Source of the DNA: a phage
Assembly (NCBI GenBank): GCA_037574385.1
Contig: GCA_037574385.1_4529.1
Direction: 5' to 3' (one strand)
Length of the DNA stretch: 64,000 bases
Shown here: one piece after another, positions 3,044 through 58,836 of the stretch
How positions within the stretch are numbered: the stretch's first letter is position 1
How the letters are laid out: every line of letters begins with the position of its first letter
Translations under genes and position numbers: made by a program
Notes under the pieces: generated by a model
Told to the model about the DNA's origin: nothing
The model's database searches: none
Seen by the model: only the letters and a program-made list of their open reading frames with translations

Positions 3044-3051
3044 TATAAATA
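3044..3051 (+). promoter_or_regulatory. late promoter TATAAATA upstream of t
   Basis: Exact TATAAATA ~20 nt upstream of the holin ATG; consensus of T4 gp55-dependent late promoters. Confidence 0.6.
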
Positions 3052-3070
3052 TTGATAAATGGGAGGTAAT

Positions 3071-3730
3071 ATGGCAGCACCAAAAGTATCATTTTCGCCT
3101 AGTGATATTTTATTTGGGTTGCTAGACCGCATTTTCAAAGATAACGCCTCTGGAAATATTCTTATTTCCAGAGTTGCTGTTGTAGTTCTTTTGTTCCTAA
3201 TGGCACTAATATGGTACAAAGGGAGTATTTTTATGGATTATTACGTGAGGTCGAAATATGATACTTACACAGAAGTAATTCAAAAAGAAAGAAATACACG
3301 ATTTGAATCTGCGGCTTTAGAACAACTACAAATAGTCCACGTCACATCAAGGGCGGATTTTAGTTCGGTGTATTCTTTCAGACCTAAAAATCTAAATTAT
3401 TTCGTCGACCTTATTGCGTATGAAGGTAAGTTACCTAGCACAGTAACTGAAAAATCTATGGGAGGATTTCCTGTCGATAAAACTACAGCAGAATATTCGG
3501 TCCATTTAAGTGGACTTCACTTTACTTCTAAAACAGATTTTGCTTTCTTACCTACCAAATCAAAAACTCCGGAACTGGCATATATGTATAGTTGTCCTTA
3601 CTTCAATTTGGATAACATATATGCTGGAACTGTTTCTATGTATTGGTATAAGGGGTCGGATGTGTTAAATGAAGAACGCTTGGCAGCAATATGCAACCAA
3701 GCAGCAAGGATATTAGGGCGGGCTAAATAA
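3071..3730 (+). CDS. t: holin T (lysis timing)
   Basis: Starts MAAPKVSFSPSDILFGLLDRIFKDNA, one TM segment, ends ...CNQAARILGRAK; high identity to T4 holin as I recall it. GGGAGG 5 nt upstream of ATG 3071 (track ORF begins at 3059). Confidence 0.9.
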   Translation: MAAPKVSFSPSDILFGLLDRIFKDNASGNILISRVAVVVLLFLMALIWYKGSIFMDYYVRSKYDTYTEVIQKERNTRFESAALEQLQIVHVTSRADFSSVYSFRPKNLNYFVDLIAYEGKLPSTVTEKSMGGFPVDKTTAEYSVHLSGLHFTSKTDFAFLPTKSKTPELAYMYSCPYFNLDNIYAGTVSMYWYKGSDVLNEERLAAICNQAARILGRAK

Positions 3731-25993: not shown

Positions 25994-26230
25994 TTAACCG
26001 CTTACTGGTGTAGGGGTAAACATTGCGGCGTTCTTAGTTTTCCAAGTTGCTGCATCAGAAACGACATCAGAATAAGCTGCCTTTTCTGATGGAAAGATTT
26101 GGTAATGAGAATCTGCAATCCGATGTTCGTTTGAATAAATCTCAAACGGAACAGAAACTTCCATACCTTTAACTTCTTTACCTTCACCAGCTGGATGCGT
26201 GAAGGTTTTGATATTAACGAAACCACCCAT
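25994..26230 (-). CDS. soc: small outer capsid protein Soc
   Basis: 78 aa; ...VNIKTF......KEV.GMEVSVPF.IYS..H.I...HYQIFPSEKAAYS.V... matches T4 Soc. Confidence 0.9.
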   Translation of the reverse strand: MGGFVNIKTFTHPAGEGKEVKGMEVSVPFEIYSNEHRIADSHYQIFPSEKAAYSDVVSDAATWKTKNAAMFTPTPVSG

Positions 26231-26261
26231 AATAAACTCCTTTGTTGTTTAATTACAGGTG

Positions 26262-26269
26262 TATTTATA
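26262..26269 (-). promoter_or_regulatory. late promoter TATAAATA upstream of soc
   Basis: Plus-strand TATTTATA = minus-strand TATAAATA ~32 nt upstream of soc ATG. Confidence 0.6.
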
Positions 26270-47699: not shown

Positions 47700-49388
47700 T
47701 TATGAAACAGTCATTACAGTAAATCGTCCAACTTTGCTCATCTGAAGATGTTGTCCATAAGCTTGTGGGTCATGGTCTCTGTGACTAATTATAAACACGT
47801 TTGCATCGGTTAGAGAGTTAAGAATCGTTGAAATAGCTTTAATACCTTCAGAATCAGTCGCGGAATCCATGACTTCGTCCATAATTAATGTATTGATTCT
47901 AACACCAGAGACCTTTTCAGCAATATCTCGCCATGTAAACAACAACGCGATATCAATGCGTGCTTTTTCACCTTGACTAAATGAAGCATAACTAAAATCT
48001 TCACGGCCGCGTGATTTTATAGATTCATTGAATTCTTCGTCAATAGAAAACACATAATCAGCTTCCATGATTTTAAGATAATGGTTAATCTGCTTGTTGA
48101 ACAGAGGCACATATTTTTTAATGATAGCACCTTTAATACCAGAATCTTTTAACATATCTGTGATAATACCACGATGGTATTTTTCAAGAACGATATCCGA
48201 TTTTGTTTTAATGATTTTATCAAGTTCTTTTTGAAGCAAAGCTATCTCATCGGCATGGTCGATAAATTCCGCCGAGGCTTGTTCTATTGCAGCTTTAACT
48301 TTCTTAGCTTTATCAATAGTAGCAATCATTGCTTGTTTCTTTGTACGAATATCGGATGCAAGGTCCTGTTTAGTCTTAACATTAGCTCTATATTCGTCCA
48401 CTAGGACACTCAGATTATCTCTGTGACAGGTAAGTTGCTCGAATGAGTGATTACATTCATGAAGCTTATCGGTAATCTTAGAGACAATAGGATCGCCCTG
48501 GTGCAACTGTGATGCACAAGTAGGACATGTACCGCCATCGTGATACATCTTAATAACTTTGTTATATGAGTCAATTTTAGATTTAATCAAGAATGCTTCT
48601 TGTCCTATCTTGTTGAATGCCTCAGTAGGGTCTTCATCAAGAACGATATTAAGTAGTCGCTCATTAGCTTCTTCGATTTCTGCTTTTAATGAACGAGCTT
48701 CTTTGGCTAGGTCGTCATACATATTCTGTAGACGTGCTACATTATCGCCAGATAATTTCTTTTGGCGTTCGATATTCTCGTTATAAATCTTAATTTGTTG
48801 GATAATACCATCTTTCTTGGCATCGAGAACTTGTCCCTGGGAATTAAGTTCTCGAACTTGAGACTTATTGATTTTATCCATTTCAGCGAGTGTGCCGACT
48901 TCTAAAAGGTCTTCGACAAGTTTTCTACGAGCAGGGGTGCTAAGAGCCATGAAAGGGGTATACCCTGCCGTCCCAAGCACAACGATCTGTTTAAAAGACG
49001 CGTATGACATTCCGATGCTACGTTCAAATTCTTCTTGGAAGTCGCGACTGCTGGCAGATTCATCAAGACGAACACCGTTAACGGAGATTTCGAAAATATT
49101 GGGCTTTTGGCCACGTTTAATGAAGTATTTTTTATCATCGAATTCCATCCAAAGCTCAACTAAGAGCTCTTTCTTGTTCGTGCTATTAATGATTTGTCCT
49201 TTCTTAACATCACGAAATGGTTTACCGAAAAGTCCGAAAGTAATGGCTTCTAACATCGTAGATTTACCACCGCCATTTTTACCAGTGATTAATGTCTTTT
49301 GGACTTTATCTAATTGGATATCAATAGGATTCCCACCTACCGACATGATGTTTTGATAACGAACACGATTTAATTTAAATGATTTCAT
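47700..49388 (-). CDS. 46: recombination endonuclease subunit gp46 (Rad50/SbcC-like)
   Basis: 562 aa; Walker A GKNGGGKSTMLEA, central coiled coil with CPTC zinc hook, C-terminal ABC signature/Walker B. Confidence 0.95.
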   Translation of the reverse strand: MKSFKLNRVRYQNIMSVGGNPIDIQLDKVQKTLITGKNGGGKSTMLEAITFGLFGKPFRDVKKGQIINSTNKKELLVELWMEFDDKKYFIKRGQKPNIFEISVNGVRLDESASSRDFQEEFERSIGMSYASFKQIVVLGTAGYTPFMALSTPARRKLVEDLLEVGTLAEMDKINKSQVRELNSQGQVLDAKKDGIIQQIKIYNENIERQKKLSGDNVARLQNMYDDLAKEARSLKAEIEEANERLLNIVLDEDPTEAFNKIGQEAFLIKSKIDSYNKVIKMYHDGGTCPTCASQLHQGDPIVSKITDKLHECNHSFEQLTCHRDNLSVLVDEYRANVKTKQDLASDIRTKKQAMIATIDKAKKVKAAIEQASAEFIDHADEIALLQKELDKIIKTKSDIVLEKYHRGIITDMLKDSGIKGAIIKKYVPLFNKQINHYLKIMEADYVFSIDEEFNESIKSRGREDFSYASFSQGEKARIDIALLFTWRDIAEKVSGVRINTLIMDEVMDSATDSEGIKAISTILNSLTDANVFIISHRDHDPQAYGQHLQMSKVGRFTVMTVS

Positions 49389-51735: not shown

Positions 51736-51945
51736 TTATCTCATTAAATTAAAATAAAAACGTCCGTCCTCTTCAATACAGAACTCGTACTCAACTGGAG
51801 TCCCATTTATTGAAAATGACACGTCATGTGGGTTCAAAGGGTCGATGTCAAAATTAATTTTAAATTCTCGACCCAACAGTTTTACCAAATAAGGGATTGC
51901 TTCGTCAAAAGGTTCTTCTAAGTAGTTAGAGATGTCAATTGTCAT
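51736..51945 (-). CDS. hypothetical small protein downstream of 55 (start at internal Met)
   Basis: Track ORF overlaps the 55 coding end; internal [17 protein letters not shown]... start removes the overlap. Confidence 0.45.
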
Positions 51946-52510
51946 CCTCATATAAAAAATCCAAACTAGGCGAATCGCTAACAACTTCCTTCTTTTCAGC
52001 CCCAGGAGCTTTATAAGCGGATTCTTCATAATGCGTCATTTTATCGTAGATGTCTTGAATAAACGTTTCATCTACCAACGCTACCATATCATCGTCATGA
52101 CTGTCGTAGACATTATGAACGAAGTAACTATATTTCTTTGCAACTTCCTTACGTTCTTTTTTGATACGTTGGACAAAAGCATTAAAACAAGCTCGAGTTA
52201 TGTATGCATGTGGGTTATTGTACTTAGTTTCGTCGAAATTATGAAGTCCCTTAATAGAGGCTTCAATCCCATCTGCAATCATCTCCTGCTTCCAAGACTG
52301 GGTATACCCTGAAAAGTTGAAACGTTTGGACAGGCCTTCGGCGATAAGCATAATTGCTAAACCGATGGTATCATTCTGACGAATAATTTTGTTTGGGTCT
52401 TTATTATTTAAGAGCTCCTTTTTCCACTCGATTATAGCAGCGAGAAGCTCTTTATTATTCACATAGTTATTTTTAGGTTTTTGTTCAGTCATAAGTACCT
52501 CTTGGCTCAA
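51935..52510 (-). CDS. 55: late-transcription sigma factor gp55
   Basis: ...[148 protein letters not shown] matches T4 gp55. Confidence 0.95.
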
Positions 52511-55743: not shown

Positions 55744-56214
55744 TTAATCATGTTTCCACACCCCATCGGTATTTGACCAAAGTCGCTGATTATCTGATCC
55801 TCGCCACAGCTTTTTAGTCGGAAGATTTTTCTCATACTTCCCATCAATAATAACATCAACATATTTAAGCATTTCTAGCTGTTTAATATCTTCAAACTTA
55901 TATCCTGTCCACAACCAAATGCTTTTATTGGGATAAAGATTTTTAATAGTTTGAACCACAGAGTGAATAACATCTCGGTTATCAGGATAGAGAGGGTCGC
56001 CTCCAGTTATAGTCAATCCTTCTATATAATCATTATTCAAACATTGAATTAATTGTTCTAGTGTTTCACCAGTGAATGGAGCACCATTTCTAGCATTCCA
56101 TGTTGATTTATTATAACACCCTTCGCATTTATGCAAACAACCTGTAACGAAAAGAACGACCCTACAACCAGGGCCATTAACAAAATCGCAAGGATAAAAT
56201 CTATCATAATTCAT
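55744..56214 (-). CDS. nrdG: anaerobic ribonucleotide reductase activating protein NrdG (radical SAM)
   Basis: 156 aa; C-x3-C-x2-C (CLHKCEGC) near N-terminus; directly downstream of nrdD. Confidence 0.9.
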   Translation of the reverse strand: MNYDRFYPCDFVNGPGCRVVLFVTGCLHKCEGCYNKSTWNARNGAPFTGETLEQLIQCLNNDYIEGLTITGGDPLYPDNRDVIHSVVQTIKNLYPNKSIWLWTGYKFEDIKQLEMLKYVDVIIDGKYEKNLPTKKLWRGSDNQRLWSNTDGVWKHD

Positions 56215-58028
56215 TGGTGTTTAACCCTATGCATGATTTCTTTATTTTTACCGAGATTAAATCCGCGTTCGTTCGGATTTCCCAAATAACCGCACGTTCT
56301 TCTTATTGTGTTCATCTTTTTAGGATCAGTTTCTCCGCAAACTGAACAAACAAATCCGTTTTCAGTAGGAGTCATTTCATGGGTACTTCCGCATGTAAAA
56401 CATTTATCCACTGGCATATTAACACCAAAATAATCTAAATGTTGTGCAGCATAATCCCAGACGGCCTCAAGTCCTTTTAAGTTATTTTTCATATCAGGAA
56501 GTTCAACATAAGAAATGTGACCACCTGTCGCAATGAAATGATATGGCGCTTCACGAGAAATCTTTTCAAACGGAGTAATATTTTCTTCTACTGAAACGTG
56601 GAAACTATTAGTGTACCAGCCTTTATCGGTAACATCTTTTACACTTCCGTATTTTTCTGTATCAAGTTTACAGAAGCGATAACAAAGGTTTTCAGCAGGA
56701 GTCGAATATAAACTAAAAGCAAATCCAGTTCTTTCAGTCCACTGTTTAAGATGAGCATTCATTTTAGTTAAAATTTCTTGCCCAATATCACGACCGACAA
56801 GAATATTCAATTCGTGAATACCAATGTATCCCAAAGACACTGAACTTCTACCGTTTTTAAATAACTCAATTATGTCGTCATCAGGTTTAAGACGAACACC
56901 GAATGCACCTTCTTGGTAAAGAATAGGAGCAACAGTCGCTTTAACTCCTTTTAAGGAACTAATTCTACACATCAAGGCTTCAAAACACAGATCCATTCGT
57001 TCATTGAATAATTCAACAAATTTCTGTTCATTGAACTGTGTTCCAATATAAGAATCTAATGCGATACGAGGAAGATTCAGCGTTACAACACCTAGATTAT
57101 TACGCCCATCAAGAATTTCATTACCGGTTGAATCTTTCCACACACTCAAGAAACTACGGCAACCCATTGGAGAAACTGGAACTGAAGAACCGGTAATAAC
57201 TTTGTTATTCTTAACCGAAATGATGTCAGGATACATTCTTTTGCTTGCACATTCTAAAGCAAGCTGCTTAATATCATAGTTCGGGTCGTCTTTATAAAGA
57301 TTAACACCTTCTTCAATGAACATAACAAGTTTAGGGAAAATAGGAGTTATCCCATCACGTCCAAGACCTTTAATCCGATTTTTCAGAATTGCTTTCTGAA
57401 TCATTCGTTCAGTCCAATCGGTTCCCATGCCAAATGTAATTGTTACAAAAGGCGTTTGTCCATTTGAACTAAAGAGAGTATTTACTTCATATTCATAAGC
57501 TTGGAATGCATCGTATACGTCTTTTTCTGTTTTAGATTGAGCATAATTCAACGCATCAGCGATTTGCCATTTTTCTGCATCTTCAACATGTTTAGCGTAT
57601 GTGCGTTTAACATAAGGAGAAAGAACTTTATCGACATTCGCAAATGTAGTTCCGCCATACTGATGTGAAGCAACTTGTGCGGTAATTTGTGCCATAATTG
57701 CAGTAGCAACACCAATTGATTTAGGCGTTTCAATTTGAGCATTGCCTAATTTAAATCCATTCTCAAGCATCCCCTTTAAATCGACTAAACAGCAATTAGT
57801 AAATGGAAGAGCAGGAGAATAATCAATATCATGCATGTGGATAATTCCACTTTCATGCGCATTCATAATAAAAGACGGGACCATATTTTTGGCAATGTGC
57901 TTAGACACAATACCAGCCATAAGGTCCCGTTGAGTTGGAAAAACACGAGAATCTTTATTAGCATTCTCGTTCAAAAGATCTTTATTAGTTTTATGAATTA
58001 ATCCTTCAATTTCTTTTTCAATTTTCAT
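56211..58028 (-). CDS. nrdD: anaerobic ribonucleoside-triphosphate reductase NrdD
   Basis: 605 aa; C-terminal zinc site (C..C...C..C) and glycyl-radical motif RTCGYLG; uninterrupted (no intron). Confidence 0.95.
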   Translation of the reverse strand: MKIEKEIEGLIHKTNKDLLNENANKDSRVFPTQRDLMAGIVSKHIAKNMVPSFIMNAHESGIIHMHDIDYSPALPFTNCCLVDLKGMLENGFKLGNAQIETPKSIGVATAIMAQITAQVASHQYGGTTFANVDKVLSPYVKRTYAKHVEDAEKWQIADALNYAQSKTEKDVYDAFQAYEYEVNTLFSSNGQTPFVTITFGMGTDWTERMIQKAILKNRIKGLGRDGITPIFPKLVMFIEEGVNLYKDDPNYDIKQLALECASKRMYPDIISVKNNKVITGSSVPVSPMGCRSFLSVWKDSTGNEILDGRNNLGVVTLNLPRIALDSYIGTQFNEQKFVELFNERMDLCFEALMCRISSLKGVKATVAPILYQEGAFGVRLKPDDDIIELFKNGRSSVSLGYIGIHELNILVGRDIGQEILTKMNAHLKQWTERTGFAFSLYSTPAENLCYRFCKLDTEKYGSVKDVTDKGWYTNSFHVSVEENITPFEKISREAPYHFIATGGHISYVELPDMKNNLKGLEAVWDYAAQHLDYFGVNMPVDKCFTCGSTHEMTPTENGFVCSVCGETDPKKMNTIRRTCGYLGNPNERGFNLGKNKEIMHRVKHQ

Positions 58029-58498
58029 TTTAAACTCTTTCTAAGCTGCTTTTTGAATGAAGATATTAATTGTGTTTTAGTATCAGATTCATTATATTCA
58101 AATCCTCTTTGAAGCATCTCAGCCATCATTTCCTCTTTACCTAGTCTTGAGAACTCTTTAGTTTTGTCTGGAACAAAATTAGGATGGATATTATTATCAG
58201 AATAATCTTGTTTCAAATAAGCAAGAAGAGCTTCAAGCCATTCGAGGTAATCAACGTTTTGACCTTTCAAACCGGAACGGTTGAACTTATGCTTCATTTG
58301 ACCTTCTGCTGCGTTGCACAGATTACAGAGTAATCCACGAACTCTACCGGCTTTTGGCCCGTTTAATTCATGGTCGTGGTCAAGATGGTTACCTTGAACA
58401 TCAGAGTCTAATTCACGGCGGCAAATAGGACACTTACCGTTCTGTGCATCATAAAATTTTTGTTTTTCTTCTTTATATTTTGCGCCTGATAATAACAT
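58025..58498 (-). CDS. 49: endonuclease VII (gp49), Holliday-junction resolvase
   Basis: 157 aa; ...KEEKQKFYDAQNGKC.IC.REL..DVQ.NHLDHDHELNGPKAG.VRGLLCNLCNAAEGQMKHKFNRSGLKGQ.VDYLEWLE matches T4 EndoVII. Confidence 0.95.
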   Translation of the reverse strand: MLLSGAKYKEEKQKFYDAQNGKCPICRRELDSDVQGNHLDHDHELNGPKAGRVRGLLCNLCNAAEGQMKHKFNRSGLKGQNVDYLEWLEALLAYLKQDYSDNNIHPNFVPDKTKEFSRLGKEEMMAEMLQRGFEYNESDTKTQLISSFKKQLRKSLK

Positions 58499-58503
58499 GA
58501 TAA

Positions 58504-58535
58504 ACCCTTACCTTAAATAGATAAGGGTATTTATA
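58504..58535 (-). promoter_or_regulatory. late promoter TATAAATA overlapping an RBS-sequestering hairpin upstream of gene 49
   Basis: Minus strand TATAAATA (plus 58528-58535) followed by ACCCTTA...TAAGGGT stem, ~30 nt upstream of ATG. Confidence 0.55.
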
Positions 58536-58537
58536 AT

Positions 58538-58735
58538 TTAGTAAACTTTATAAAAGTTACGATGAGAACGTTTAGCTTTGCGAAGCTGACGTTTAGTAGG
58601 ACGAACTGTAAATGGTTGTCCAGAGAAAAAATTCGGATCGGTTTTAATAAGCAAATACCAATCATGCTTGCCATTTTTTAATAAACGGTACAATAATTTA
58701 ACTTGCATAATAATCTCTTCCCATTTCCATATCAA
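58538..58735 (-). CDS. hypothetical basic protein (65 aa)
   Basis: ORF upstream of gene 49. Confidence 0.45.
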   Translation of the reverse strand: MIWKWEEIIMQVKLLYRLLKNGKHDWYLLIKTDPNFFSGQPFTVRPTKRQLRKAKRSHRNFYKVY

Positions 58736-58836
58736 TTAATTCATTTATTGAAGGTTCATCATAACATGGTTCTTCGTCGTTGTAAACTGTTTCGACGTCT
58801 GGCTCGACTGTCTCCCATCGAGCAGAATACCACGGT

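Follow-up and report, generated by a model that had tools for sequence, protein, structure and literature searches.

In the RB69-like phage analyzed here, the recombination endonuclease VII (EndoVII) gene, gene 49, is preceded by an exact T4-type late promoter motif that runs into the base of a hairpin containing the Shine-Dalgarno (SD) sequence of the gene. Most likely (we put the probability at about 85%), synthesis of EndoVII in this phage is timed by a dual-transcript, hairpin-gated mechanism of the kind described for T4, in which long early transcripts fold and mask the ribosome-binding site (RBS) whereas short late transcripts, initiated within the hairpin, leave it accessible. An initial annotation of the window (the entire 64,000-nt stretch of phage DNA that was analyzed) had noted this arrangement; the observation is confirmed and its interpretation is supported, the element being the ortholog of a known T4 device that has already been studied experimentally. 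Because the T4 case was worked out in 1988 and the RB69 late promoter was predicted in 2006, the window adds no new principle. The additions are modest, namely covariation across phages of several host genera, which indicates that the helix is under selection, a perfect consensus promoter in place of the T4 variant, and the lack of conservation of the start codon of the nested T4 product gp49'. The element would explain how a nuclease that acts on branched DNA is held back until packaging despite the location of its gene in the early region, and it provides a clean example of timing that depends on where the transcript begins and not on a regulator protein. The coordinates of all features are collected in Table 1.

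Table 1. Features in and around the gene 49 leader and related elements elsewhere in the window; promoter, start site and hairpin entries are predictions.
Feature	Coordinates	Strand	Remarks
Gene 49, recombination endonuclease VII (EndoVII), 157 aa	58025..58498	minus	AUG 58498-58496
T4-type late promoter of gene 49, exact TATAAATA	58528..58535	minus	taken as -13..-6
Predicted late transcription start	58520..58524	minus	best guess A58522, from the -13..-6 rule
Hairpin 5' arm, ACCCUUAUCU	58519..58528	minus	starts on the final A of the promoter octamer
Hairpin loop, AUUUA	58514..58518	minus	from folding
Hairpin 3' arm, AGGUAAGGGU	58504..58513	minus	from folding and covariation
Shine-Dalgarno sequence, UAAGGG	58505..58510	minus	6 nt before AUG; wholly in the 3' arm
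Small ORF upstream of gene 49 (RB69ORF087c homologue, DUF7279)	58538..58708	minus	stop TAA 58540-58538
nrdD	56211-58028		directly after gene 49 in minus-strand order
MotA-type middle promoter inside gene 49	58083-58116	minus	TGCTTCA 58116-58110, 13-nt spacer, TATAAT 58096-58091, start near 58083
gp55 late sigma factor	51935..52492	minus	phrog_234 'late sigma transcription factor', E = 3.7e-68
Soc-like gene, 78 aa, with exact TATAAATA	25994-26269	minus	ATG 26230; motif 26269-26262
Third exact TATAAATA, before the t holin gene	3044-3051	plus	SD GGAGG, ATG 3071 (site 3044-3073)

The gene 49 promoter and hairpin

The initial annotation had framed the element in terms of T4, but the source phage is RB69-like (Mosigvirus), with a gene 49 region 97-98% identical to that of RB69 and its relatives. 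The gene 49 ORF matches the Pfam families Endonuclease_7 (PF02945) and Endonuc-dimeris (PF09124) as well as the PHROG of endonuclease VII (phrog_423), and annotated homologues are present in RB69 and T4. The upstream genes nrdC, 49.1 and the DUF7279 ORF lie on the same strand and overlap or abut each other. The stop codon of the DUF7279 ORF is located 2 nt before the late promoter motif, and this ORF would be crossed by any long RNA that is able to fold the hairpin. The gene for gp55, the trans-acting factor required by T4-type late promoters, is also present in the window; it was recognized through PHROGs only, as the NCBIfam search yielded no model matching this ORF.

On the minus strand, the region reads ...TAC TAA AT TATAAATA CCCTTATCT ATTTA AGGTAAGGGT TTATC ATG TTA TTA..., and the octamer TATAAATA, found exactly at 58535-58528 where a minus-strand late promoter motif had been annotated, is a perfect match to the T4 late consensus. 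In T4, the consensus octamer is positioned at -13 to -6 (Nolan et al., 2006, PMC1524935; sequence and position are also given in PMC2988020), and at the homologous position of RB69 the late promoter Pl:47792 has been predicted (Nolan et al., 2006, PMC1524935 supplement). The octamer, the gp55 gene in the same window and a late gene in the correct orientation downstream together identify 58535-58528 as a probable T4-type late promoter. If the octamer occupies positions -13 to -6, then +1 is predicted to fall on A58522, base 7 of the 10-nt 5' arm, in agreement with the late start within this arm proposed in the initial annotation, and the late RNA would lack ACCCUU, to which the SD is complementary. 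As the TATA box and the base of the stem overlap, use of this promoter would make it almost impossible for late 5' ends to lie before the entire hairpin.

Exact copies of TATAAATA are scarce in the 64-kb window (3 compared to 7.6 expected; 97 of 100 shuffles contain at least 3), which suggests avoidance of stray late promoters in a mostly early region. All three copies are located, on the correct strand, 20-32 nt upstream of the starts of genes with late functions, namely those for the t holin, the Soc-like protein and EndoVII. The gene 49 copy is followed immediately by CCC, unlike the T4 late promoters, which tend to be AT-rich just after the TATA box (PMC2988020), so this promoter might be weaker than its perfect octamer suggests. 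The CCCTTA downstream of the TATA box (58522-58527, minus strand) is constrained to pair with the purine-rich SD and may represent a trade-off between promoter strength and masking.

Folding of the leader with RNAfold yields a single dominant helix of 10 bp, including one G.U pair, closed by a 5-nt loop (MFE -12.9 kcal/mol). The 7-bp stem ACCCTTA (58528-58522)/TAAGGGT (58510-58504) of the initial annotation is present but constitutes only the outer part of this helix, and the promoter motif described as abutting the stem is indeed adjacent to it but, in fact, overlaps it, the last A of the motif being the first paired base. The overlap of the 3' arm with the RBS is as annotated: UAAGGG (58510-58505) lies fully within the arm and pairs with ACCCUUA. 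The single-sequence evidence that this combination is not accidental is modest. The 66-nt segment folds with a z score of only -2.05 (8 of 200 shuffles fold as well), and 1 of 2000 shuffles produces a 10-bp helix that starts from the final A of the motif. Taken with the fact that TATAAATA is not over-represented in the window, the z score would be compatible with an AT-rich octamer and a short inverted repeat having come together by chance in an intergenic spacer that is itself AT-rich, an explanation that is decided by the comparison with relatives described below.

In partition-function folding, the SD has a probability of 0.001 of being unpaired in five long RNAs that differ in their 5' ends, compared to 0.53-0.55 for RNAs that begin at 58520-58523 and 0.46 if the first base is 58524; that the SD is only about 55% unpaired in the modeled late RNA is due to weak residual pairings. 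In the model, then, early read-through RNA folds and late RNA frees the RBS (SD unpaired 0.001 versus about 0.54), as had been proposed. The same contrast is predicted across the 28 distinct leaders defined below, for which the mean accessibility of positions -15 to +3 is 0.24 in the long and 0.52 in the late RNA, with the higher value in the late RNA in 27 of the 28. By the modeled sequestration of the SD and the predicted start inside the 5' arm, the gene 49 leader would belong to the class formed by T4 e, soc, 49 and I-TevI.

Conservation and covariation among relatives

A scan of viral contigs with the gene 49 protein yielded 44 loci (97-52% identity), which together with the window and T4 provide 28 distinct leaders. 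In each of the 28, xxTAAATA precedes an 8-12 bp hairpin (-8.5 to -13.9 kcal/mol) that extends into the SD or the AUG, and in all but one (L040, with a 2-nt offset) the hairpin begins at the last A of the motif. Among the 27 distinct motif-to-start segments, 24 pair without interruption over 8 bp or more exactly from this A, and for none of them do more than 12 of 2000 shuffles equal the stem; in the remaining 3, the pairing reaches into the AUG or the stem starts 2 nt later.

A plain MAFFT alignment of the leaders placed the 3' arms out of register and was replaced by arms anchored on the last A of TAAATA, from which a covariation set of 8 outer pairs in 15 distinct arm sets was derived. In this set, 98.3% of the cells are paired, in an alignment that is partly fitted and leans towards structure inasmuch as the 3' arm was picked for best pairing and only the 5' arm is fixed, by the motif. 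Changes on both sides of the helix (compensatory) are observed at 6 of the 8 pairs, with position 2 occurring as CG, GC, UA and AU. The covariation score is 0.856, compared to 0.288 in shuffles (none of 500 reach the observed value) and 0.07-0.20 for slid partners. Judged on these sequences, the comparative evidence that the arrangement of promoter and hairpin exceeds chance is decisive, and the conservation with compensatory changes indicates that the hairpin structure is under selection. We therefore consider a chance co-occurrence to be excluded by the covariation. Also at odds with chance are the retention of the arrangement in every distinct leader, the 38 of 40 nt shared with T4 although the flanking upstream gene differs, and the position of all TATAAATA copies before late genes.

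The relatives with this arrangement include the Aeromonas phages Aeh1 and PX29, Morganella phage MP1, close relatives of Klebsiella and Enterobacter phages, and Escherichia phages. The leaders of the Aeh1 group carry CTAAATA, which is the late consensus reported for Aeh1 (PMC1524935). The cassette thus persists in phages of Escherichia, Klebsiella, Enterobacter, Morganella and Aeromonas despite the shifted late consensus in Aeh1 and different upstream genes, and the promoter-in-hairpin combination may be an ancient, co-evolving cis-regulatory unit located before gene 49 in T4-like phages. We found no account of family-wide covariation of this hairpin in Rfam or in reviews.

A conserved stem-loop at an initiation region could, in principle, be bound by a protein, and T4 RegB cleaves within SD sequences whereas RegA binds initiation regions, so that the hairpin could serve as a target that a protein or an RNase (such as RegB, RegA or RNase III) recognizes or processes instead of being a passive mask of the RBS. 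We consider this very improbable. The RegB target GGAG is absent from the hairpin of the window and from relatives of the GAGGUGA type, and the loop varies among relatives in both sequence and length (3-15 nt) while the pairing is kept, which fits a structural mask rather than a sequence-specific site. Moreover, an Rfam search of 58300-58800 returned nothing near the gathering score. Processing of the hairpin by RegB in particular was rejected on account of the missing GGAG. A DNA cruciform serving as an autoregulatory target of EndoVII was also considered and found no support; the arms span 10 bp, and the loop variability fits an RNA mask.

Timing of EndoVII synthesis and the question of termination

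Under the masking mechanism, RNA polymerase would proceed early and at middle times from upstream promoters through nrdC, 49.1 and the DUF7279 ORF into gene 49, and in the resulting long RNAs the hairpin (58528-58504) would bury the SD and keep EndoVII synthesis low. At late times, gp55-RNA polymerase acting at TATAAATA (58535-58528) would start near A58522, inside the 5' arm; the late RNA, without ACCCUU, could not form the inhibitory helix, and the open RBS would permit translation of EndoVII at the time when branched DNA must be resolved for packaging. We infer the existence of the read-through RNA in this phage, as well as the size of the translational effect of the hairpin, from these features. 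Matches to sigma-70-like promoters upstream of gene 49 are at the chance level (30 found compared to 29.8 expected), so the consensus scan does not locate the source of the early RNA.

In T4, gene 49 is reportedly transcribed both early and late from different promoters, and a hairpin is said to hide the first RBS in the long transcripts, as described by Barth, Powell, Trupin and Mosig in 1988 (Genetics 120:329). Of the 40 nt that span promoter and AUG, 38 are the same in the window and in T4, and the two phages share the orthologous gene and the position before it, the identical hairpin sequence ACCCTTATCTATTTAAGGTAAGGGT, the same SD and the overlap of the last A of the promoter with the base of the stem. 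The T4 promoter reads AATAAATA, whereas the perfect TATAAATA of the window is a better match to the consensus; position -2 relative to the AUG is C in the window and T in T4, and the gene upstream of 49 is pin in T4 but the DUF7279 ORF in the window. This identity, together with the inclusion of T4 gene 49 among the genes, along with e, soc and I-TevI, in which the SD and/or the AUG is sequestered in an RNA helix (Uzan and Miller, 2010, PMC3014915), bears out the match to the classical T4 arrangement claimed in the initial annotation. The same logic of RBS sequestration combined with late promoters has been set out with reference to Barth et al. 1988 (Edgell et al., 2010, PMC2988022), where the gene is printed as '39', apparently a misprint for 49. 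T4 e, soc and I-TevI as well as Aeh1 mobE are all late genes situated in early or middle transcription units. They carry hairpins that mask the SD or the AUG, have late promoters within or downstream of the 5' arm, and follow the same scheme of a masked long early RNA and an open short late RNA. Their sequences are, however, unrelated to that of the gene 49 leader, and gene e has two late promoters.

A different role for the hairpin is suggested by its resemblance to the intrinsic terminators of T4-like phages: like these, it occupies a short intergenic spacer, has a stem of about 10 bp and precedes a few U residues. The hairpin might be mainly an intrinsic (rho-independent) terminator or a 3'-end stabilizer that closes the upstream early unit (nrdC ... 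49.1, DUF7279 ORF), in which case essentially all gene 49 RNA would come from the late promoter, and nrdD would be transcribed from the middle promoter located within gene 49. At RB69 47738-47760, TransTerm indeed called this very hairpin as a 9-bp terminator, '49<--RB69ORF087c', at 98% confidence (PMC1524935 supplement), and the stem, in which 4 of the 10 pairs are G-C, is followed by UUAUCAUGUU. The predicted MotA-type promoter, the elements of which are identical in T4, implies that nrdD has a promoter of its own and needs no read-through; the start of the T4 promoter PnrdD (P49.1) is printed as '6440', presumably 46440 (Hinton, 2010, citing Barth 1988).

The details of the element speak against termination as its main function. 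The U-tract is poor, the 8 nt that follow the stem (tail UUAUCAUG) including 4 T, and a terminator consensus scan of the window did not flag the gene 49 hairpin or detect any strong terminator-like site between the upstream genes and gene 49. The T-rich tail of most relatives consists of conserved codons, ATG TTA TTG (ATGTTATT), and in the most divergent ones (L041-L047) only 1-3 of the 8 nt are T although the hairpin is still kept. Unlike in the terminators of T4-like phages, the U-tract is thus weak and not conserved, and conservation instead concerns the way in which the hairpin overlaps the late promoter on one side and the SD or AUG on the other. Furthermore, T4 gene 49 RNA is classed as 'early' in time-resolved omics data, in which the protein was not detected (PMC9697503, supplementary file 4). 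Given the identical hairpin in T4, this indicates that RNA crosses the hairpin before the late promoters become active and argues against full termination at this site. A predominantly terminating hairpin is, accordingly, improbable in our estimate. A bifunctional hairpin, which masks the RBS and at the same time acts as a partial terminator or insulator separating gene 49 from the early nrdC/49.1 unit, while nrdD relies on the internal MotA-type promoter of gene 49, is somewhat more probable but still unlikely. We favor masking of the RBS as the role of the hairpin.

Related elements and variation around gene 49

The Soc-like gene represents a second copy of the late-promoter-in-hairpin arrangement in the window. 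In its long RNAs, a helix formed by CACCUGUAAU and AUUAUGGGUG covers the AUG, rather than the SD as in gene 49, and the 5' arm would be absent from an RNA initiated at the predicted +1 (26256). This helix appears only if the coding start is included in the folded segment. No hairpin was found in the t holin leader, and when all TAAATA sites of the window that precede an ORF start were scanned, no other strong motif-anchored hairpin was detected within a leader.

Within gene 49 itself, the internal GUG that starts the nested 12-kDa gp49' of T4 is replaced by GTT in the window (codon 53, 58340-58342, minus strand) and in RB69, so that the nested product cannot be made in the same way in the phage of the window. 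Codon 53 is GTA in four loci with a T4-type leader (L006, L007, L009 and L010) and GTT, GTC or ATT in most other relatives. From these sequences, gp49' seems to be specific to T4 and a few other phages.

Compared to RB69 (L002, 1699-2283), about 600 bp are missing at 58698-58735 of the window, between 49.1 and the DUF7279 ORF. In RB69, this segment contains pin (Lon protease inhibitor) and RB69ORF089c, and the shorter form that lacks both genes is common to several close relatives (PHB12, phiE142).
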